Virus record (IMG/VR): IMGVR_UViG_3300037851_000865
Location: 29,232 to 93,231 of that record
DNA length: 64,000 bases
Strand: one strand, 5' to 3'
Source: a virus
How positions within the stretch are numbered: the stretch's first letter is position 1; each line of letters starts with the position of its first letter. Both the position numbers and the translations under genes were made by a program. Under the pieces are notes generated by a model, which ran no database searches, had not been told where the DNA came from, and saw only the letters and a list, made by a program, of their open reading frames with translations. This document shows positions 11,337 through 28,023 of this stretch, piece by piece.

Positions 11337-14300
11337 ATGGCACATCTGGACCACAACGAGGCTTTCGAGGAGTTCAAGAACCGAACCCTGGAAGGAATTA
11401 AGGCCAACTTCCCCATCGAGGGGCGAGACCGTTCTCTCGTCCTGAAGGGGTTGGAGGTTGCAGATGCGGCGAACGCATCTGATGACCTCGACGAGCAGCA
11501 CAAGGCGAAGGTAGAAGGGCGCACGTTCAGTCGTCCTATCTATGCGACCGTCTCTGTCGTGGATAAGCAGACGGGTAAAGAACAAACAGAGCGCATGAAG
11601 ATTGGTGAGCTCCCTGTGCTCACCCGCCGGTACAGCTACATCGTTGGCGGGCAGGAGTACCAGGTAGACAATCAGTGGCAGCTGAAGCCCGGCATCTACA
11701 CGCAGCGCAAAGCTGACGGCTCGCTGAAGTCGGAGTTCAACATTCAGGGAAAGAAGTCTTTCAACCTGAAGTTCGAACCTGAGACCAAGCAGTTTCTCAT
11801 GGAGCGCGGCAGTTCCAAGACAATCCCCGCCTATCCCATCCTGAAGACGATGGGTATCGACGACGAAACTCTTGAGCGTCAGTGGGGGAAGGACATTCTT
11901 CAGGCGAACAGGGACTCACGCAACTCCGCTACCGCTCTGTCGCGTTTCTACAAGGCCGACAAGAAGCGCATGCCCGCGGACACCACAACTGCTTCGACGT
12001 ACGTACGCCAGACGCTGCTCGGTTCTCAGGTACGCGCGGACGCCGTAGAGAAAACGCTCGGGCGCAACACGTCGACCGTAGACGGTGACATTCTTCTGCG
12101 GGCTACCAAGCGCATGCTGGACATTCAGGGAGGTGCTCCTGAGGATGACCGCGACAGTCTTGTGTTCAAAGACCTGCGCTCTGTTGGTGACTACGCGTAT
12201 GACAAGCTGACAGACTGGCGCACACAGAGCATGATTCGCACGAAGATTCAGCGGCAGCTCAACAGCGCAAAGGCCACCTCTCCTCGAGACATCCTCCGTA
12301 CGGCTTCTTTTGGACAGCCCATCATGGCGACGTTCAAGAAGAACTCAGCCGCGCGCACCGCCGACCAAATCAATCCGGTTGAGATGCTTGCGTCTTCGAT
12401 GCAGACCACTGTGATGGGCCCTGGTGGTATTCAGTCGGAGCACGGCATCACCCCTGAGGTGAAGTACATCAATCCGTCGCACTTTGGGTTCCTCGACCCA
12501 CTTCACACACCAGAGGGTGGAAAGACCGGCGTAACCCTTCATTTGCCTATGGGTGTGAAGAAGGTCGGAAAAGAGCCCCGAATTCCGGTATATAATTTGA
12601 AAACGGGCAAGAAAGAACTTATCGGTCCGGCGGCATTTATGTCGTCGTCGGTTGCGCTCCCTGACCAGATGAAGTGGGACGACAAGGGCCGACCTGTGCC
12701 TGTCGCTGCCAAAATCAAAGTCTCTTCAAAGGACAATGAGATTGAAGAGGTCTCGTCCAAAGACGTGCAGTACGCGATGTATCACCCGTCGCAGGCGTTC
12801 TCTTTGACCTCGAACCTAATCCCCTTCATGGGCAACACCTCGGGTAACCGCGCCAGCTACGCGACTCACCACATTGAGCAGGCTATCTCGCTAGCGGACC
12901 GGGATGTGCCGCTTATTCAGGCGGGTACTGGCGTAGGCAGAGGCGGCATCAAGAGCTTCGAAGAGTTTGTTGGACGTAACTCTGCACATACAACTCCTGT
13001 TGCAGGTGTTGTTGTGAAGGCGGACAAGCAGCACGGTATTGTGGTCAAAGACGACAAAGGGCAGACCCACAAGGTTCCGCTGTACAACAACTTCCCGCTG
13101 AACGATGCCAAGGCGGTTCTGGACTCCACGCCCATTGTAAAGCCAGGTGACCACGTTCGTGCGGGGCAGGTGGTGGGCGATACAAACTTCACAAAGGGCG
13201 GCAGTCTCGCGCTCGGGAAGAATCTTCGAGTCGGCTACATCCCCTACAAGGGCTACAACTTTGAAGACGGCGTGGTCATCAGCGAGTCGGCCGCGGACGC
13301 TCTCAAGAGCGTGCACATGCACAAGCCGAGCATGAAGCTGCAGCCTACGGACACGACCGATGTCAAGAAGTTCACAGCGCAACATCCTGAGGCTTTCAGG
13401 AAAGAACAGCTACAGAAGGTAGGTGCCGACGGCATTGTTCAGGTAGGTCAGCGCATCAACCCTGGTGACCCGCTTGTGTTGGCGATGAGGCCGCTCAACA
13501 TCAACGACCAGTCTGGTATCGCGCGTGTGCGTAAGAGCTTGTCTGGTCAGCAGACTGACGCGTCTTTGCGCTGGGACAAGGACTACGCCGGCGAAGTTGT
13601 AGGCGTGCACCAGAACAAGAAGGGCGAGGTCACTGTCCACGTAAAGACCATCGAGCCCATGACGGTCGGCGATAAAATCACAGGTCGCTACGGCAACAAG
13701 GGTATCGTCACAAAGGTCATCCCTGACGCTGAAATGCCTCGAACAAAGGACGGACAGCCCATTCAGGTGGCTCTCAATCCCGCTGGCATCCCAGGCCGTA
13801 TGAACGTTGGTCAGGTGCTTGAAACGGCCCTGTCCAAGGTCGCGCGCAAGACCGGGCAGCCCATCATCGTGAACAACTTCGAGTACGGAGTTGACCAACT
13901 TGAGAAGGCCAAAGAAGAACTGAAGAAGCATGGTCTCGAGGACAAGGAAGAGCTCATTGACCCGAAGACCGGCTTGTCTCTCGGCAAAGTGCTCGTCGGC
14001 GAGCAGCACATGCTCAAGCTTCAGCATCAGGTAGACAAGAAGGTCTCGGTCAGAAGCGGTATGGCGCTGCGTGGTGAAGAGGCTGAAGGTTACGACAACA
14101 ACCTCATCCCTAAGGGTGGCGGCAAGGCCGGTGCGCAGTCGATGGGTAACCTCGGCATGAACGTCCTGCTTGCTCACGGAGCCACCGCGAACATCCGCGA
14201 GATGCAGACCTGGAAGTCTCAGGGAGAGGACCCCGCGCCCGAGCACAAGCGCTGGAGGTCTCAACACAACGACGTGTGGAACGCCATTCAGACTGGCGCT

Positions 14301-17300
14301 CCCCTTCCTGCACCCAAGCCTACGTTCGCCTTCCAGAAGTTCACCGACATGCTCAAGGCGTCGGGCATCAACGTAGAGAAGAAGGGCAACAAGATTCAGC
14401 TCACGCCTCTCACCGACAAAGAAATCGAAGCTATGTCTTCGGGCGAGCTGTCTAACCCAAGCCGCCTCACGTACGCGAAGACGGACAAAGATGGGCAGCT
14501 GAAGCCCATCAAGGGTGGCTTGTTCGATGAGGCCAAGACTGGTGGCGTTCACGGGAAGAAGTGGGCTCACTTCAGCCTGGCGGAGCCCATGCCGAATCCC
14601 ATCTTTGAGGAACCTATCAAGAAGGTTCTGGGGATGAACAAGAACCAGTTCGCCGATGTGGTGAACGGGGACAAGGCTATCGACCCCAAGACGGGGCAGG
14701 TTGTGGCTCTCGGAAAAGGGTTGTCTGGTGGTGCCGGCATCGCTGCTGCTCTGAAGAACGTTGATGTGGCCAAGGAGCTCGAGCTTGCAAAGAAAGAGCT
14801 TGAGGCCGTGAAGATTTCTCCTGACTTTGCTCACGGAGCAAATACGCAGAAGCTCGACACGGCCCTCAAGAGGGTGAAGTACTTGAGTGTTCTGCAGGAC
14901 AAGGGCATTCGTGCTGACGAGGCTTACGTGCTCACGAAGCTTCCGGTCATTCCTCCAGCGATGCGCCAGCCGAGCATCATGAACGACGGCAATGTTCGCT
15001 GGGAGGACATCAACGGCCTCTACAAGAGCTTCGCCGAGGTCAACGATAAGCTCAAGGAGCTCAAGGGCTACGAGAGTATCGGCATCGGGGATGCGGACAT
15101 GAAGGTGCCGCGCCAGGGCATGTACGACGGACTCCGCGCACTGGTTGGCGTTGGGCAAAGCGCCGCGGAGCGTGATGAGGACAAGCCGAAGGGTATCCTT
15201 CGTATGATTCACGGAAGTATCCCGAAGGAGGGTTACTTCCAGAAGACGCTCATGTCGCGCAAGCAGGACATGACGATGCGCTCTACCATCGTGCCTGAGC
15301 CTGCCATGAACCTGGACGATGTCGGTGTTCCAGCTGCCAAGGCACTCACGTTGTTCCGTCCGTTCGTAATCAAGAAGATGACTGACATGGGCGTGGCGCA
15401 GACCCCACTTCAGGCACAGGAGATGCTTCGAGACAAGAATGCCATCAAGAATCAAGGCATCTTCAAGGCCCTTGAGGCCGTCACGGCAGAGCGGCCTCTA
15501 CTGATGAAGCGAGACCCCGCGCTGCACATGCACAGTATCCAGGCCTTCAACGCACGACCGGTTAAAGGCAACGCCATCAAGATTCACCCCCTCGTCGTGG
15601 GCGGGTACAACGCAGACTTCGACGGCGACACAATGAGCATGTACGTGCCTATCAGCAACGAGGCCGTAGAGGAGGCGCGCGGCATGATGCCGAGTCGCAA
15701 CCTGTTCAACGCGGCCTCGGGGCATGTGGCCCATGCTCCTTCTCTCGAGAGCTCGCTCGGTCTGTACAAGATGACACAAGTCCAGGGCTCGGGAAGCAAG
15801 TCTTTCAAGAGTGCGGGAGATGCCATGAAGGCAGTACAAGCAGGCAAGCTCAGCATCGACGAGCTTGCTAACATCAGCGGGTACGGGAAGACTACTGCTG
15901 GCCGTGTTCTTCTTGCGGACGCTCTCCCTAAGTCGATGCAGGACAAGATGCTGCATGACCATTCCTTTGTGATGAACAAGAAGGGTGTGAATCAGCTGTA
16001 TGGGGACCTTGCAAAGAACCACCCGGATAGTTTTGCTGATGCAGCAAATCGTCTGAAGGATTACGGCTTTGATGCCTCGTACGGCCAGGTGCGTCTCAAG
16101 CACCCGACTATACACGTGGGTCAGGGCGCTATTGATGCAGCAGAGCAGGGAAAGTTTGCTGTGCTTCCTATTGGGTCGCACAGCCTCGGGCTCGATGACC
16201 TCGCCCCGGACAAGGCCGTTCGTGACAAGATTGTCAATGCGACCCAGCGCCGTGTCGACATGGTGAACCGCTCCAATCTGACGAAGAGCCAGAAGGAGGC
16301 TCGTGCGGTGGAAGAGTGGACCAAGGCTACTGCCGAGATGCAGAAGGCGCACGTCGAGTCCGCCAAGAAGAAGCCTGACAACTTGTTCAAGATGTACGAC
16401 GCAGGCATTAAGCCGGGCATGTCTCAGTACCAGCAGCTGAAGCTTGCCCCGATGCTGCTCGAAGACGCGTCTGGTCGAACCATCCCCATGCCTGTCACGA
16501 AGTCGTACTCTGAAGGTCTCGATATGGCGGGTTACTGGATTCAGTCCAGCGGTGCTCGTAAGGGCTCTATCCAGAAGGTGCAGGAGGTCCAGGACCCTGG
16601 CTACTTCTCGAAGCAGCTCATCAACACGGCCATGAACCTGCAGATTCGCGACGAGGACTGCGGCACGCAGCGCGGCGTTGGTCTTTCTGTCTCAGATAAG
16701 GATGTCTATGACCGAGAACTTGCGTCCGACCTGAAGGTAAAAGGACGTACGTTTGCGAAGGGTACTGTTCTTTCTCCTGATGTGGTCGGGCAGATTCGCA
16801 AGCTCGACAAGGGTGCACAGGTCGTTGTCCGTTCCTCTTTGAAATGCGAGCACGGCAAGGGTCTATGCCAGCACTGTGCAGGTATCAGCCCCACCGGGAA
16901 GTATTACGACGTCGGTACTAACCTCGGTATCTTGTCGGCGCAGTCTCTTGGTGAGCGCTCTGTTCAGCTCGCTTTGAAGGCATTCCACTCTGGTGGTGTG
17001 AAGTCTACCGGCGGGGCTGGTGTGCTCGGCGCTTTTGACCGCACAAAGCAGCTCACGGCACTGCCGAAGAAGATTCCTGACGCAGCCTCCTTGGCTATGA
17101 CCTCGGGTAAGATTGAGAAGGTGCAGGAGGACCGGACCGGCACCAACATCTGGATTGCTGGGCAGAAGCACTTTGTACCCAAGGACCGCGCAGGCCGTAC
17201 CTTGACGACGACGCTTCCTGGCGTGGCGCCTCCTGGCTGGGCTCCACCGAAGGTGGGTGCGTTCGTAGAGGCGGGACAGTCCCTCAGCGACCCGACACGT

Positions 17301-17816
17301 TCTTTCGTGAACCCGCACGACCTATACAAGGCGACGAGGAACATCGAAAAGGTTCAGAACTTTCTCACGAACGAGCTTCACGGCATCTACAAGGATGAAG
17401 GTGTTCGACGGCAGCACATCGAGACGGTTGTGAAGGCACTGAGCAACACTTCTCGCGTACGTAGCCCTGGAGATGCTCAGAACATCCTTCGAGGAGAGTA
17501 TCAGCCTACGTCTCAGATGCGGGCCCTGAACGCAGAGCTCACAAAGGCTGGCAAGCGCCCTGTGAGCTATTCCCCTATTTTGAAGGGTGTCGATGTGGCG
17601 CCCTTGACGGTTCACGATGACTGGATGGCGAAGCTGAATTACGCGCAGCTCACCAAGACGTTGACGGAAGCCGCGGCAGAAGGTTCTATCTCCGACCTGC
17701 ATGGTATGCACCCGGTTCCAGGAGCAGCCTACGGGGCAGAGTTCGGTATCGCGAAGAAACACAAAGACCCCTTCGCGCCACCCCATATCAAGAACCTTCC
17801 AACGTGGTCGTACTGA
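11337..17816 (+). CDS. rpoBC: Fused beta-beta' multisubunit-type DNA-directed RNA polymerase (2159 aa)
   Basis: Beta motifs GYNFEDG, GDKITGRYGNKG, LNPAGIPGRMNVGQ; beta' motifs LPVIPP, catalytic NADFDGD (15609-15629), bridge helix GARKG...GY, CEHGKGLCQHC, trigger loop AQSLGE...AFHSGG. Confidence 0.97.
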   Translation: MAHLDHNEAFEEFKNRTLEGIKANFPIEGRDRSLVLKGLEVADAANASDDLDEQHKAKVEGRTFSRPIYATVSVVDKQTGKEQTERMKIGELPVLTRRYSYIVGGQEYQVDNQWQLKPGIYTQRKADGSLKSEFNIQGKKSFNLKFEPETKQFLMERGSSKTIPAYPILKTMGIDDETLERQWGKDILQANRDSRNSATALSRFYKADKKRMPADTTTASTYVRQTLLGSQVRADAVEKTLGRNTSTVDGDILLRATKRMLDIQGGAPEDDRDSLVFKDLRSVGDYAYDKLTDWRTQSMIRTKIQRQLNSAKATSPRDILRTASFGQPIMATFKKNSAARTADQINPVEMLASSMQTTVMGPGGIQSEHGITPEVKYINPSHFGFLDPLHTPEGGKTGVTLHLPMGVKKVGKEPRIPVYNLKTGKKELIGPAAFMSSSVALPDQMKWDDKGRPVPVAAKIKVSSKDNEIEEVSSKDVQYAMYHPSQAFSLTSNLIPFMGNTSGNRASYATHHIEQAISLADRDVPLIQAGTGVGRGGIKSFEEFVGRNSAHTTPVAGVVVKADKQHGIVVKDDKGQTHKVPLYNNFPLNDAKAVLDSTPIVKPGDHVRAGQVVGDTNFTKGGSLALGKNLRVGYIPYKGYNFEDGVVISESAADALKSVHMHKPSMKLQPTDTTDVKKFTAQHPEAFRKEQLQKVGADGIVQVGQRINPGDPLVLAMRPLNINDQSGIARVRKSLSGQQTDASLRWDKDYAGEVVGVHQNKKGEVTVHVKTIEPMTVGDKITGRYGNKGIVTKVIPDAEMPRTKDGQPIQVALNPAGIPGRMNVGQVLETALSKVARKTGQPIIVNNFEYGVDQLEKAKEELKKHGLEDKEELIDPKTGLSLGKVLVGEQHMLKLQHQVDKKVSVRSGMALRGEEAEGYDNNLIPKGGGKAGAQSMGNLGMNVLLAHGATANIREMQTWKSQGEDPAPEHKRWRSQHNDVWNAIQTGAPLPAPKPTFAFQKFTDMLKASGINVEKKGNKIQLTPLTDKEIEAMSSGELSNPSRLTYAKTDKDGQLKPIKGGLFDEAKTGGVHGKKWAHFSLAEPMPNPIFEEPIKKVLGMNKNQFADVVNGDKAIDPKTGQVVALGKGLSGGAGIAAALKNVDVAKELELAKKELEAVKISPDFAHGANTQKLDTALKRVKYLSVLQDKGIRADEAYVLTKLPVIPPAMRQPSIMNDGNVRWEDINGLYKSFAEVNDKLKELKGYESIGIGDADMKVPRQGMYDGLRALVGVGQSAAERDEDKPKGILRMIHGSIPKEGYFQKTLMSRKQDMTMRSTIVPEPAMNLDDVGVPAAKALTLFRPFVIKKMTDMGVAQTPLQAQEMLRDKNAIKNQGIFKALEAVTAERPLLMKRDPALHMHSIQAFNARPVKGNAIKIHPLVVGGYNADFDGDTMSMYVPISNEAVEEARGMMPSRNLFNAASGHVAHAPSLESSLGLYKMTQVQGSGSKSFKSAGDAMKAVQAGKLSIDELANISGYGKTTAGRVLLADALPKSMQDKMLHDHSFVMNKKGVNQLYGDLAKNHPDSFADAANRLKDYGFDASYGQVRLKHPTIHVGQGAIDAAEQGKFAVLPIGSHSLGLDDLAPDKAVRDKIVNATQRRVDMVNRSNLTKSQKEARAVEEWTKATAEMQKAHVESAKKKPDNLFKMYDAGIKPGMSQYQQLKLAPMLLEDASGRTIPMPVTKSYSEGLDMAGYWIQSSGARKGSIQKVQEVQDPGYFSKQLINTAMNLQIRDEDCGTQRGVGLSVSDKDVYDRELASDLKVKGRTFAKGTVLSPDVVGQIRKLDKGAQVVVRSSLKCEHGKGLCQHCAGISPTGKYYDVGTNLGILSAQSLGERSVQLALKAFHSGGVKSTGGAGVLGAFDRTKQLTALPKKIPDAASLAMTSGKIEKVQEDRTGTNIWIAGQKHFVPKDRAGRTLTTTLPGVAPPGWAPPKVGAFVEAGQSLSDPTRSFVNPHDLYKATRNIEKVQNFLTNELHGIYKDEGVRRQHIETVVKALSNTSRVRSPGDAQNILRGEYQPTSQMRALNAELTKAGKRPVSYSPILKGVDVAPLTVHDDWMAKLNYAQLTKTLTEAAAEGSISDLHGMHPVPGAAYGAEFGIAKKHKDPFAPPHIKNLPTWSY

Positions 17817-23391: not shown

Positions 23392-23647
23392 ACTCTAGGC
23401 GGTACGCTGGAAAACTAATCTGGTCTACCTCCCACCCACTTTCCCTCATGTACTGACGCACGTAGCCCCTGACGAAGGGGCGTGCCTCTCTGGCTATCTT
23501 TGAACGCAATCGAAACGCCGCATGGTCTCCCTCTTCTGTGCTCCATACAGCAGTCTGTCCTGTCAGGTTGTCGTTTGCGCGCTCGAGCGACTCTCCAAGT
23601 CTGTGAAGAGTAGCTTCGATATCGCTGCAGAGTTCGGGAGGGTACAT
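23279..23647 (-). CDS. Possible small leftward ORF (122 aa)
   Basis: MYPPELCSDIEATLHRLGE...FVRGYVRQYMRESGWEVDQISF; fills an otherwise empty 255-nt gap, but has no RBS and overlaps the 3' end of the convergent gene. Confidence 0.35.
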   Translation of the reverse strand: MYPPELCSDIEATLHRLGESLERANDNLTGQTAVWSTEEGDHAAFRLRSKIAREARPFVRGYVRQYMRESGWEVDQISFPAYRLEFTFRWVGKARSPSSEERPREASAGPSKKQNRGRQTTS

Positions 23648-25454
23648 GGGAGCTGCTGAACAACTGTACGACGAAGACGACTGGGACGATACCTGGGACG
23701 AGACATCGACCTGGAATCCGGAAAGTCCGATAGTCGAAGACGAGCGTCTCCTACAGAAGAAGCAGAAACAGCTCAAAGCATTGCCGGCTTTGAAGCCGTC
23801 ACAGTTCACGTCATACGCGTTCTGGATGCCTAAGACAGAGCGTGGCGTCACCGAGGAGGGCGAGGAATACGAACGGGTCGTCATGGACCGGTTTACCTTC
23901 GACGGTCGCCGGCACATGATTCGCCCCTACGATACGCCAGCGAAGCGCTTGCTTCTGTTCTGCGGTCGTCAGGTGGAGAAGTCCACGCTGCTGGGCAACA
24001 TCATGCTCAGCTACATGTGCCTAGTTAGTGGGTACAGGGCTCTGTACGTCTCGCCGTCGATGACGCAGACCAAGACGTTCAGCTCTGACCGTATTCGTGA
24101 GCCCATGGAGACAAGCCCTGTCTTGTCTAAGTTCACGACAACGATGCTCTCGCAGAACATTCTCGAGAAGCAGCTTGTCAACCGCAGTAAGCTAACGCTG
24201 CGCTACGCGTACCTGAACGCCGACCGCACGCGCGGTATCCCGGCGTACTTGCTGGCCATCGATGAGTTTCAGGACATCCTGCAGGACAACGTTCCTGTCA
24301 TGCAGCAGTGCTTGTCTCACGCACCGCAGTCGCTGAAGCGGGAGATTTACTCAGGCACGCCCAAGTCCTTGGACAATCACCTTGAGTACTACAGGGCCAA
24401 CCTCAGCACGCAGGGGGAATGGGTTGTTCCCTGCAATGCCTGTAACCACTGGAACGTCCTGGGCGAGAAGAACATCGGCAAGAACTGGCTGTGTTGCGAG
24501 AAGTGCGGCAAGCAAATCAACCCGATGGACGAACGGGCCCAATGGGCCAACATGGTGAAGGGCGATGTTCCGTGGGAGAGCTACCGCATCCCTCAGCTGA
24601 TGGTTCCGTGGCTGAACTGGAAGAAGGACATCCTTTACAACTACGAGAACTACTCTCGAGAGAAGTTCTACAACGAGGTCCTGGGCATCAGTTACGACTC
24701 AGGGCTGCGACCGCTTACAACCCAACAGCTCAAGGATGTCTGCAATCCAGACGTCACCATGATGGAGCTTGGGTGGTACAAAGAACAGAGCCACGCGCAG
24801 CCCATTTACGCCGGATTGGATTGGGGGACCGGAGAGCACTCGTACACGCTCCTGACGCTCGGCACCTACGTGGGTATGAAGTTCCGCGTTTTCTACGCGC
24901 ATCGCTTCACCGGCGAAGAGATTGACCCTGAAGTACAGATAAAGAAAATCATCGAGATTCTTCGGTACTTCAATGTGAAGTTCGTAGGCTCTGATTACGG
25001 CGGAGGCTTCAATCAGAACTACATCCTCGCCAAGACGTTCGGAGCACTCAAGCTCAAGAAGTTCCAGTATCTGGCTCGCAGCTCCGGCGGCAAGGTGAAG
25101 TGGGACCCCAAGTTACTTCGGTACAAGGTGTCCCGCACAGAGGTGATGAGCGACGTCTTCAACGCCGTGAAACAAGGCAAGCTCGAGTTCCCCAAGTGGG
25201 ATGAGTGGCACGACCCGTACGGCCAGGACATGCTCAACATCTACAGCGAGCACAACGCTCAGCTGAACATGATTCAGTACAAGCACGGTGTGGATAAGCC
25301 GGACGACACCATGCATTCGGTCTTGTACTGCTTCCTGGCTTCCATGTTCGACTACCCGCGTCCCGACATCATCACGCCAGATACGGAAGACCAGCACGGT
25401 CGTCGGCGAGAGAACTGGCCCGGTCCTATTGACCAAGGCGGGACCTACTACTGA
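23646..25454 (+). CDS. terL: Terminase large subunit (gpA-like, with zinc finger)
   Basis: Walker A variant GRQVEKS, Walker B AIDEFQD, IYSGTPK, CNAC...CEKC, nuclease motif YAGLDWG; GGAGG RBS. Confidence 0.92.
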   Translation: MGAAEQLYDEDDWDDTWDETSTWNPESPIVEDERLLQKKQKQLKALPALKPSQFTSYAFWMPKTERGVTEEGEEYERVVMDRFTFDGRRHMIRPYDTPAKRLLLFCGRQVEKSTLLGNIMLSYMCLVSGYRALYVSPSMTQTKTFSSDRIREPMETSPVLSKFTTTMLSQNILEKQLVNRSKLTLRYAYLNADRTRGIPAYLLAIDEFQDILQDNVPVMQQCLSHAPQSLKREIYSGTPKSLDNHLEYYRANLSTQGEWVVPCNACNHWNVLGEKNIGKNWLCCEKCGKQINPMDERAQWANMVKGDVPWESYRIPQLMVPWLNWKKDILYNYENYSREKFYNEVLGISYDSGLRPLTTQQLKDVCNPDVTMMELGWYKEQSHAQPIYAGLDWGTGEHSYTLLTLGTYVGMKFRVFYAHRFTGEEIDPEVQIKKIIEILRYFNVKFVGSDYGGGFNQNYILAKTFGALKLKKFQYLARSSGGKVKWDPKLLRYKVSRTEVMSDVFNAVKQGKLEFPKWDEWHDPYGQDMLNIYSEHNAQLNMIQYKHGVDKPDDTMHSVLYCFLASMFDYPRPDIITPDTEDQHGRRRENWPGPIDQGGTYY

Positions 25455-25465
25455 TTCAGGGCTAG

Positions 25466-25498
25466 AGAAAAAGCAACCGATGACTCGGTTACTTTTCT
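25466..25498. terminator. Bidirectional intrinsic terminator (stem perfect on the minus strand)
   Basis: Minus strand AAGTAACCGA-GTCA-TCGGTTGCTT-TTT; on plus the stem has a C-A mismatch and T4. Confidence 0.75.
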
Positions 25499-25710
25499 CC
25501 CACAGGTCACACTTATGCTTGAGAGTTTTGCCTACTGTGCCTCAAGCAAGTCCACCTTTAGTCTCGCGGTGGTTCGGGATGCAGTTACGTCGCAGACTCG
25601 CTGCCGCATCTCAGGAGGCGCTTTTCTCGGGGTTCTGGTTTTACGTGCGTGTGGGGCTCTTAGGTCCCACAGCTACGATATTCTCCAGGCTTGACCGAGG
25701 TGTTTCCTCG
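25466..25710 (-). ncRNA. Candidate structured small RNA (~245 nt)
   Basis: Lies between promoter motif copy 3 and the terminator; five visible hairpins; no convincing ORF. Confidence 0.4.
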
Positions 25711-25714
25711 ATAT

Positions 25715-25743
25715 TCTTATACCATGTTTACTGGGGTTTTTGC
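25715..25743 (-). promoter_or_regulatory. Candidate phage promoter GCAA-N19-ATAAGA (copy 3)
   Basis: Plus strand TCTTAT 25715-25720, 19 nt, TTGC 25740-25743; also reads as extended -10 TGGTATAAG. Confidence 0.65.
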
Positions 25744-25753
25744 GTAGAACAGC

Positions 25754-26506
25754 CTACTGCTGAGAGCGCATGCCCTTGTGTTTTGAAGCAGCTATGGCCA
25801 GCATTGTGATGCGATGATTCTCTCCCGCGAAGTCCGCTTCAAAGGCGCGCATGGCCGCGCGCTTTCCGTACCTCTGAATGTGATACATGAAGATAGCGTT
25901 ACGCAGAGTCTTCCTGGCAGCATTGAGCCGCCGATAGGCAAGAACCTCCGCAGGGTTATACGCCATGTCTTCAGCGTTCTGGCACCTCAGCAGGTGGGTG
26001 ACGAGGTCGTTGTATACACGCCACGGTTCTTCCTTGTCGTTGGTCACCGACGCGACCCGAAGAAAGTACTGCTCACACAGAGAGCCAAAGATGTCTGCCC
26101 AGTAAGTGACGCGTTCTTCGCCGTTGATGGTTTTTGCCAGTGCCTGGTAGGCCTCTTCGTGCAGGGCTTGAATGCTCTCCGCGTCGAGCTGGTATGCTGG
26201 AGAGACATGCATACCGAGCAGCCTCTCGAGAGCTTCGACTCTGCGCTGTGCGACCCTCGCGGCCGCCCAGGCCTGCTCAGCTGTTTCGGTGGTGGCCAGC
26301 AAGGAAATTTCCCGCTCACGGACCTCCCGCAGGGCCGCAATCTCCTCAGGGTCGAACAGCGGGGCGTTGAAAGGCCCGGTTCTTCCTACGATTCGGAGGG
26401 TGCCTTTGCGCATCATCTTCTCGACGCTACGCTCGGACACATCCAGAATTTCCGCCACTTCCTCCTTGGGGATACCTGATACACTTCCCATGACGCTGTT
26501 TTGCAT
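25754..26506 (-). CDS. DNA-binding protein with N-terminal excisionase/MerR-type HTH
   Basis: KEEVAEILDVSERSVEKMMRKGTL...LFDPEEIAAL; divergent from the head operon, starts only 35 nt apart. Confidence 0.75.
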   Translation of the reverse strand: MQNSVMGSVSGIPKEEVAEILDVSERSVEKMMRKGTLRIVGRTGPFNAPLFDPEEIAALREVREREISLLATTETAEQAWAAARVAQRRVEALERLLGMHVSPAYQLDAESIQALHEEAYQALAKTINGEERVTYWADIFGSLCEQYFLRVASVTNDKEEPWRVYNDLVTHLLRCQNAEDMAYNPAEVLAYRRLNAARKTLRNAIFMYHIQRYGKRAAMRAFEADFAGENHRITMLAIAASKHKGMRSQQ

Positions 26507-26541: not shown

Positions 26542-28023
26542 ATGCACGACCTACCATCTATTCTGTTGGAGCAGCAGTCACATGCTCCACCCAAATCCGG
26601 TGAAGAGCTCGAGGTTTTGGGGAAGTGTGCTGCGAAGAAGTACATCGACGGCACCTGCAAGAGTCTGAATGAAGCTGTGGTCGATACCATCAAACATGCA
26701 GGGTTATCGCCCGAGCAGGTTCGACGGGTCATCGAGTTCACAAACACAGACGCGTTCCTGACGGAGCACAAGAAGGAAGGCTCGAGCCGCTACGTCGACT
26801 TCCACGGTGGGCCTGCTGACCCCGGTGAGGTTCTTAGGGACCTCAACGATGGTGGTGGCGGAACGGTGTTCGACCGTGGTCTGGCCGACTACAGCCTTCC
26901 TCCCGGGACCAAGACGGCGCGGGCGCACACGCTGGGCGGGCAGGAGAAGACGGCAGCCGCCTCTGAGTTCGGCCCCACCCTTGGGGACATCGCGGGCGAC
27001 ATGCACGGCAAGGTCATGCGCTCCTACAAGCTCCCTCCCTATCAGGGCTACGACCCGTTCGGCCAAGGAGAGGCAAAGCACAAGGTCAAGATGCTGGGTG
27101 CGTTGGGCTTCAAGGGTGTGAAGGTCGGCAGTGCTGAGCCCATCCCGTTCCTCGACAATGACCCCGCAGAAGAGGCGCTTAAGCAGGCTTTTGCCTCTGA
27201 AGAAGAGGCGCTGCCCTTCGCTGACCCTCTGGCTCCCGCCATCGCCACGAGCGACAAGCTCGCCGGCGCAGTTGACCATCTGACCGCAGAGCTCACCGAG
27301 CTCGAGGGTGCTTTCCACGACAGCCTCGACGACGTGTACCAGCACGTGAAGCAGGCGAGCTTGGAAGGCATCCCGCTCGGGCACGTTCTGACGGCCTGGC
27401 AGTCAGTTGTTCCTGACGCCGACTATGTGAAGGTAGCTTTCTCCCACATCAGCCCTCGCCTGGTCCGTGATGGGGTGTTCGCCGGCTTCGATGACGTCGG
27501 TGACTCTCTCCAGAAGACTGCGCACGTTGGTCACGTGAACTCCAGCCATCCTCTGGTCGGCTCCATGGCCCTCTTCTGCATGACGCTCGACAAGCTTGCA
27601 GAGACACGCGCTGCTCGCGCGGAGCTCATTCAGGCTCGAGACGCTATGCAGGACTTCACGCAGAAGACCGCGAGTGTGTTCAAGCGGGTCGCTGATAGTG
27701 GAGGCGTCCTCCCAAAAGTAACAAGGGCGTTCCGGTCTGCGGGTGAGTCCGCAGGTAAAGGCACCAAGACTCTAGGAGAAGTTCTCCTCGGTACTGGTTC
27801 TCGGGGCGCCCAGACCGCCGCCAACGCCGTCGAAAAGGGCATCACATACACCCCGCACGCCGCTGCTACTCTGGCAGGACTTCTCGCCGTCGCTGACATG
27901 CGCGAGCGCGCAAGGTACAGCCCCGCTTTTCAGACCGCGAAGAACTTCGCGCTAGCACGCGTTCCCTACACCCACCAGAACATGGTCTACCAAAATCAGT
28001 TGGCCATGGAAGGCCAGTACTGA
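26542..28023 (+). CDS. Putative internal head protein with K-x-A motifs and C-terminal amphipathic/hydrophobic segment
   Basis: 493 aa; TKTAR, EKTAA, VKQAS, VKVAF, QKTAH, QKTAS. Confidence 0.8.
   Translation: MHDLPSILLEQQSHAPPKSGEELEVLGKCAAKKYIDGTCKSLNEAVVDTIKHAGLSPEQVRRVIEFTNTDAFLTEHKKEGSSRYVDFHGGPADPGEVLRDLNDGGGGTVFDRGLADYSLPPGTKTARAHTLGGQEKTAAASEFGPTLGDIAGDMHGKVMRSYKLPPYQGYDPFGQGEAKHKVKMLGALGFKGVKVGSAEPIPFLDNDPAEEALKQAFASEEEALPFADPLAPAIATSDKLAGAVDHLTAELTELEGAFHDSLDDVYQHVKQASLEGIPLGHVLTAWQSVVPDADYVKVAFSHISPRLVRDGVFAGFDDVGDSLQKTAHVGHVNSSHPLVGSMALFCMTLDKLAETRAARAELIQARDAMQDFTQKTASVFKRVADSGGVLPKVTRAFRSAGESAGKGTKTLGEVLLGTGSRGAQTAANAVEKGITYTPHAAATLAGLLAVADMRERARYSPAFQTAKNFALARVPYTHQNMVYQNQLAMEGQY

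Follow-up and report, generated by a model that had tools for sequence, protein, structure and literature searches.

Phage morons were described by Juhala and Hendrix in HK97 and lambda, and the classical ones, such as lambda bor and lom, carry a protein gene. Short phage RNAs are known as well. The oop RNA of lambda is antisense to cII, and the lambda 6S RNA, which is made between pR' and tR', serves as late-operon leader and is lengthened through antitermination by Q. In enterobacteria, type I 3'-UTR-derived small RNAs with a promoter of their own (MicL, DapZ) are conserved, bind Hfq and have mapped targets.

The stretch analysed here resembles each of these systems in part. It is the 299-nt gap (25455-25753) between the convergent genes for the terminase large subunit and a helix-turn-helix (HTH) protein in an uncultured phage (IMG/VR record IMGVR_UViG_3300037851_000865, 175,761 bp). 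The window is the whole stretch of 64,000 nucleotides that was analysed, corresponding to bases 29,232-93,231 of that record, and positions refer to the window unless genome positions are stated. Our preferred reading is that of a young, lineage-specific insertion of about 300-335 bp, built like a moron without a gene. Its RNA would be a by-product or a lineage-specific accessory RNA, and not a conserved structured RNA. We assign this reading a probability of roughly one half.

The terminase/HTH junction

ORF 11337-17816 encodes the RNA polymerase of the phage, in which beta and beta' are fused. From 25466 leftward to 11337, a distance of approximately 14 kb with the terminase, RNA polymerase and virion genes, every long and evidently coding ORF lies on the plus strand. 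The first 180 nt of the record (1-180) are repeated at 175,582-175,761, which fits either a short terminal repeat or the overlap of a circular assembly. Table 1 lists the features of the gap and the two genes flanking it.

Table 1. Features at the terminase/HTH junction, in window coordinates.
Feature	Position	Strand	Remarks
Terminase large subunit gene	23646-25454	+	left flank; Pfam GpA_ATPase match; homologues 47-84% identical
Direct repeat, left copy (CCTACTACTGA)	25444-25454		11 nt; includes terminase stop TGA
Intrinsic terminator	25467-25497	-	13-bp stem, GUCA loop, UUUUUCUCU tail; bidirectional, stronger on minus strand
Body of predicted non-coding transcript	25498-25709	-	about 240 nt including terminator; four internal hairpins plus 5' hairpin at 25696-25710
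ORF of 59 aa, called as gene in source record (P0121)	25515-25694	+	no ribosome-binding site; downstream of terminase terminator
Longest minus-strand open frame, 46 codons	25532-25672	-	from CTG at 25672; basic, low complexity; GGAG upstream at 25683-25686
ORF of 25 codons (MRQRVCDV...)	25532-25609	-	inside 46-codon frame; ATG without Shine-Dalgarno sequence
Phage promoter motif, GCAA-N16-GGTATAA	25717-25743	-	points left; starts 10 nt past HTH stop (25754-25756)
Direct repeat, right copy (CCTACTGCTGA)	25753-25763		includes HTH stop (CTA at 25754-25756)
HTH gene, 267 aa	25754-26557	-	right flank; Pfam HTH_17; MerR/excisionase-type winged helix, N-terminal

Matches of the HTH protein to PDB profiles are restricted to its N-terminal part and concern mostly DNA-binding (HTH) proteins. 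Among PHROG families it matches an excisionase/regulator (phrog_66) and, weakly, a terminase small subunit (phrog_57, E = 0.004). The supposed HTH regulator could be the small terminase subunit instead of a transcription regulator. Across the phage family its gene is convergent with the gene for the large subunit and normally abuts it. At the other end, its annotated start (26557, minus strand) and that of a 493-aa gene of the virion cluster (26542, plus strand) form a divergent overlap of 16 nt (26542-26557), so that the promoter of either gene must sit within the coding sequence of the other. Several terminase homologues (P0002, P0015, P0017, P0059 and P0092) measure 930-1,020 aa and contain domains of the intein or LAGLIDADG type (PF14528, PF14890). 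Some relatives thus have a terminase interrupted by inteins; the phage studied does not.

The metagenomic terminase family comprises 1,383 homologues, the closest being 84, 76 and 75% identical, and the curated phage collection holds only distant terminases of at most 27% identity (for example those of Vibrio phage D69 and Salmonella phage Arash). For the comparison of related loci we used the DNA of 167 loci, with terminases 26-70% identical and all but three above 45%. Both genes were detected in 43 non-redundant loci. In approximately 30 of these the distance from terminase stop to HTH stop lies between -35 and +14 nt, and the commonest value is -4 (overlapping stops). An ORF-based survey of about 100 related loci agrees: the convergent genes usually end on each other, mostly at -4 to -17 nt. 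For the four closest loci (68-71% identical) the values are -17, -4, -4 and 0.

The protein sequences tell the same story. The terminase of the phage studied ends in ...IDQGGTYY, with four extra residues (GTYY), and this extension is absent from the 39 closest relatives compared. The 30 closest terminases compared (P0002-P0031, up to 84% identical) all end in Q-G/S/D. Since the genes of the relatives abut and these terminases end without GTYY, the 299-nt gap, together with a few codons at each gene end, is best described as a lineage-specific insertion. The comparison covers DNA up to approximately 70% terminase identity, and protein for the relatives at 75-84% (P0003-P0005). The cassette has a GC content of 51%; that of the genome is about 57%.

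The insertion is bracketed by a direct repeat of 11 nt. The empirical chance of a repeat of this length at such a pair of sites is about 0.05, which makes it weak evidence, and transposition cannot be proven from the repeat at that value. The left copy is probably not ancestral, since the terminases of the relatives all end at QG. As for features of a miniature transposable element (MITE) other than this repeat, no convincing terminal inverted repeats were seen by eye, and there was no second copy in the genome, the relatives or two exact-word scans of IMG/VR. A packaging site (pac or cos) was considered as well and rejected because the relatives lack the stretch altogether.

Other members of the family carry different DNA at the same place, and the junction is an insertion hot spot across the phage family. 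One locus (L092) has a promoter-like site, a 100-aa ORF and a terminator; another (L120) has two small ORFs, and other small ORFs are found in L124, L082, L020 and L075. L051 and L138 share an insert that is 62% identical over about 500 nt and contains a plus-strand ORF resembling an HNH endonuclease, as read by eye.

The cassette of greatest relevance here is found in the clade of L011, L012, L013 and L103 (terminase 58% identical). At the junction it has a promoter GCAA-N16-GGGGATAA of the same class and direction as the one studied. This is followed by approximately 115 nt that contain a hairpin (CCUGCGC/GCGCAGG) and lack a credible ORF, and by a terminator directly before the terminase stop. 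The cassette is flanked by a direct repeat TTGAGGCTAAA(A/G)A in which 12 of 13 positions match, and L019 represents the empty site (near 1690-1740). In L011 it spans about 165 bp (L011:1946-2110), and it is also present in L012, L013, L102 and L103. Its promoter and that of the neighbouring gene, located approximately 660 nt upstream, share 83% identity over 42 nt. Homology between this cassette and the one studied was rejected, as the local alignment score of the transcribed parts equals the shuffle mean. Given this lack of similarity, the L011-clade cassette is an independent insertion and not a homologue.

Promoter motif, terminator and coding potential

A preliminary description of the stretch had noted a leftward copy of a promoter motif at the right end of the gap. 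The minus strand at 25743-25717 reads GCAA-aaaccccagtaaacat-GGTATAA-gaa, and the copy proves to be a genuine member of the class GCAA-N16-GGNATAA. The spacing within this class is strict. Searching the 175,761-bp genome for GCAA-N(x)-GGNATAA yields 14 matches at x = 16 and none at any other x from 12 to 21; the related loci, non-redundant and 1.0 Mb in total, have 20 at x = 16 against 0-2 at other spacings. When the site is left out and a position weight matrix is made from the other 13 copies, it ranks 6th among 351,430 positions. Using a relaxed form of the motif, an ORF starts at most 55 nt downstream in 15 of the 18 copies in the genome, mostly with a ribosome-binding site. Based on the spacing-specific counts, the ORF starts downstream and the weight-matrix rank, the motif is a real, family-wide promoter-like signal, of which the site at 25717-25743 is a good copy. 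Downstream of this particular copy, 280 nt contain no ORF of 30 aa or more.

Of the other copies, three outside the window were noted. Those at genome positions 96,423 and 96,799 (both minus strand) are located just past its end, 376 nt apart; each drives a small ORF (about 72-75 aa) that has a terminator to itself, the one behind 96,423 being about 75 aa long. At genome position 150,816 (minus strand; 121,585 on the window scale) the copy is immediately followed by a hairpin that resembles a strong terminator (AAGGAGAGG-UUUUA-CCUCUCCUU and a run of U, -17.9 kcal/mol), and then by the ribosome-binding site and ATG of a 186-aa ORF. This hairpin is a possible attenuator or leader. A 5' hairpin is not a hallmark of the promoter class, as the 40-mers downstream of the copies are no stabler than random 40-mers of the genome (p = 0.19).

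At the left end of the gap the hairpin at 25467-25497 has a predicted stability of -16.6 kcal/mol on the minus strand against -10.0 kcal/mol on the plus strand, where the stem contains an A.C mismatch. The earlier remark that the stem is better on the minus strand is thereby confirmed. Judged from these stabilities, the hairpin would end the HTH mRNA as well as the short transcript, and its weaker version would end the terminase mRNA. A conserved terminator tail, TTYTYYTAGC, was considered and rejected (9 occurrences against 0-10 for scrambled variants).

The hairpin is the sole terminator in the gap. Since only 10 nt, without a terminator or hairpin, lie between the HTH stop and the promoter, the stretch must be part of the 3' UTR of the HTH gene. 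This agrees with one of the two roles suggested in the preliminary description, and the stretch would fill it in addition to giving rise to a transcript of its own.

It might be argued that the stretch is nothing more than a 3' UTR and terminator for the HTH and terminase transcripts, with a promoter that is silent or without importance, such as a duplicate that came along with the insertion. Read-through into the stretch is certain if the HTH gene is transcribed. In addition, a copied module is suggested by the resemblance of the promoter to the copy at genome position 96,423 (83% identity over 35 nt), and the cassette promoter of the L011 clade is likewise an 83% copy of the promoter of its neighbouring gene. 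However, the promoter is intact and ranks among the best in the genome, and a lone terminator would need only about 40 nt, not 300. We consider this explanation quite improbable.

Coding potential is low on both strands. Log-odds of codon usage amount to -0.08 for the 46-codon frame, 0.05 for the 25-codon ORF and -0.04 for the 59-aa ORF on the plus strand. For real in-frame segments of 46 codons the median is 0.25 and the 5th percentile -0.11, which places the minus-strand frames near the 5th to 15th percentile of such segments. A PHROG search of both minus-strand frames and the 59-aa ORF gave no match, and translated similarity (tblastx) of the frames to the loci of relatives or to the phage genome was confined to chance matches. 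No homologue of the 59-aa ORF was found among 5.8 billion proteins, and it forms a one-member cluster in the protein collection. With closed frames, low log-odds, no PHROG match and no homologue of the called ORF, the approximately 240 nt contain no convincing ORF, as the preliminary description had it.

The gene call at 25515-25694 is probably spurious and conceals the non-coding nature of the stretch. In favor of a real gene one can point to its presence as a called protein in a public collection. Its lack of homologues and of a PHROG match, its negative log-odds, its missing ribosome-binding site and its position downstream of the terminase terminator all make this very hard to believe.

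A small-protein moron is a further candidate, either decayed or coding via an unusual start, with the CTG frame from 25672 or the 25-codon ATG ORF as its product. The junction of the relatives mostly holds cassettes of a promoter, a small ORF and a terminator (L092, L120, L124, L082), and most other copies of the promoter in the genome drive an ORF. On the other hand, both frames have the low log-odds given above and show no translated similarity and no PHROG match, and the ATG lacks a Shine-Dalgarno sequence. Neither is there a long frame broken by one or two stops, as would be expected of a recently broken gene. A small-protein moron thus seems distinctly unlikely to us, and the insertion is more readily understood as one without a gene.

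The predicted transcript

The promoter at 25717-25743 would presumably be read leftward by a phage-encoded sigma factor together with the RNA polymerase, and from the motif we infer a transcript start near 25709-25711. The promoter and terminator signals combined predict a discrete non-coding RNA of about 240 nt, from approximately 25709 to approximately 25467. We conclude that a short non-coding RNA is probably made from the stretch.

All five hairpins listed in the preliminary description are present in the predicted fold of minimum free energy: CGAGG/CCUCG (25696-25710), GUGGG/CCCAC (25647-25673), GAUGCGG/CUGCAUC (25578-25610), CCACC/GGUGG (25552-25572) and GCUUGAG/CUCAAGC (25516-25548). 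Also present, at 25676-25684 and 25709-25717, is the direct repeat AGAAUAUCG that had been reported alongside them, but it is at chance level (our estimate for a repeated 9-mer within 300 nt is about 0.17). For the predicted transcript (25466-25709) the fold z-score is -3.0, and none of 200 shuffles is equally stable. Among 81 random 244-nt windows of the same genome the mean z is -0.66 (sd 1.18), and 5-9% reach the observed value. The stability of the fold is only moderately unusual. The body hairpins do not consistently favour either strand.

Within the predicted fold the region 25610-25630 is largely unpaired. This includes a stretch at 25610-25621 (GCGCCUCCUGAG) that contains CCUCCU and resembles an anti-Shine-Dalgarno sequence. 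RNAduplex was run against 283 translation start regions of the phage, and the best duplex is no better than that of shuffled RNAs (67% of the shuffles reach it). There is no extended antisense match to the predicted RNA in the phage genome.

Searches for relatives of the interior were uniformly negative. At gathering thresholds, Rfam 15 gives no match in the whole window. With E-values up to 10, the region 25300-25900 yields two chance-level matches only (E about 5; 14-17 bits against cut-offs of 37-48), so no family corresponds to the stretch on the Rfam check that had been suggested early on. ARAGORN finds no tRNA or tmRNA. A DNA search of 25300-25900, which comprises the gap and about 150 nt of each flanking gene, gave no match in 50,697 phage records. 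Compared with the full records of the five closest IMG/VR loci, the interior shows a single 24-nt chance match, and two exact interior words of 20-23 nt were not found in IMG/VR. Sensitive blastn and tblastx searches of the interior against the 167 related loci and the whole genome produced chance matches only. On this evidence the candidate RNA does not belong to a conserved family of structured RNAs.

The preliminary description had proposed an independently transcribed small RNA, possibly acting as a decoy for RNA polymerase or in anti-defence. At the level of sequence the leftward transcription unit is supported, given the class of its promoter, the bias of its terminator towards the minus strand and the lack of a credible ORF. 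A structured and functional RNA is unsupported: Rfam has no match, the stretch is absent from the related loci compared, its stability is moderate, and no target signal emerges from the start regions of the phage. For a role as polymerase decoy or in anti-defence we found no evidence. A 6S-like decoy was rejected, as this would be expected to form a long irregular hairpin with a central bubble resembling an open promoter and to match a 6S model. The predicted fold consists of multiple hairpins and not of one long helix, and the 6S models of Rfam give no match.

A functional, structured small RNA acting in trans is nevertheless an explanation to be weighed. Such an RNA would be made early and be stabilised by its 5' hairpin and terminator, and it would pair with host or phage mRNAs, for example via GCGCCUCCUGAG, or bind a protein. 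The strong promoter, the terminator, the absence of an ORF, the z-score and shuffle result, and the largely unpaired region all fit, as does the RNA-only cassette, unrelated in sequence, that the L011 clade has at this junction. Against this, no relative was found in the collections searched, so there is neither covariation nor a sign of conservation, and no Rfam family matches. Random windows that fold as well, body hairpins without strand preference, duplexes no better than shuffles and the missing antisense match point in the same direction. Overall we judge a functional small RNA of this kind unlikely.

We therefore return to the young insertion with an RNA that is a by-product or an accessory of one lineage. 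A counterpoint to the by-product is again the fold, whose z of about -3 with 0 of 200 shuffles as stable leaves room for selected structure. Any function of the RNA would be recent and specific to the phage studied. The hairpin at 25467-25497 may also matter to the flanking genes, as it would provide each of the convergent units with a definite end, a feature missing from relatives whose stops overlap. The overlap of the two transcripts would then be limited to about 30 nt, whereas those of the relatives would run into each other's coding regions. Leftward read-through past the terminator would be antisense to the terminase gene.

RNA-only cassettes have been gained at this junction at least twice independently, in the phage studied and in the L011 clade. 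That another clade has an unrelated cassette gives a hint that selection, and not accident, may account for such units. Taken further, cassettes of a promoter, a short non-coding RNA and a terminator might be acquired repeatedly and independently at the junction and be kept because the RNA is useful. Such an RNA, abundant and early, might for example pair with late plus-strand transcripts reading through the junction, or act on the host. This more general proposal appears to us a rather long shot.

Comparison with known systems

Among the results, the firmer ones are that the 59-aa gene call is probably spurious, that the junction behaves as an insertion hot spot and that the candidate RNA does not represent a conserved structured family. 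If the RNA is made and has a role, the gene-free moron would be a case of a phage gaining a regulatory RNA as a ready-made unit of promoter and terminator. If true, the unit could also conveniently serve as a reporter of this promoter class, which is still uncharacterised and belongs to a large group of uncultured phages whose RNA polymerase is of the bacterial type.

In comparison to phage morons, the unit has, at the level of sequence, a promoter and a terminator of its own; it lies between genes that are adjacent in related phages, is lineage-specific and deviates in GC content. Unlike morons it has no credible protein-coding gene, as none of its ORFs is backed by a ribosome-binding site, codon bias or homologues.

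The arrangement is also similar to that of type I 3'-UTR-derived small RNAs such as MicL and DapZ. Here too the promoter sits right where the upstream gene ends, and one terminator serves both the RNA and the mRNA of that gene. The difference is that the predicted RNA is not conserved. With lambda oop and 6S RNA it shares the short length, a phage promoter and an end at an intrinsic terminator. In contrast to these, the predicted RNA is antisense to no gene, and no co-oriented genes follow downstream for about 14 kb. An antitermination leader of the pR'-tR' type was rejected on the latter ground, since there are no co-oriented genes left of the terminator down to 11337.

The closest parallel comes from within the phage family. 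The L011-clade cassette and the one studied are alike in promoter class, direction, non-coding stretch, terminator and flanking direct repeat. They differ in length (about 115 nt there, about 240 nt here), and their transcribed parts are dissimilar. The appearance of a second, unrelated RNA-only cassette at this junction is the aspect that we consider most worth attention.
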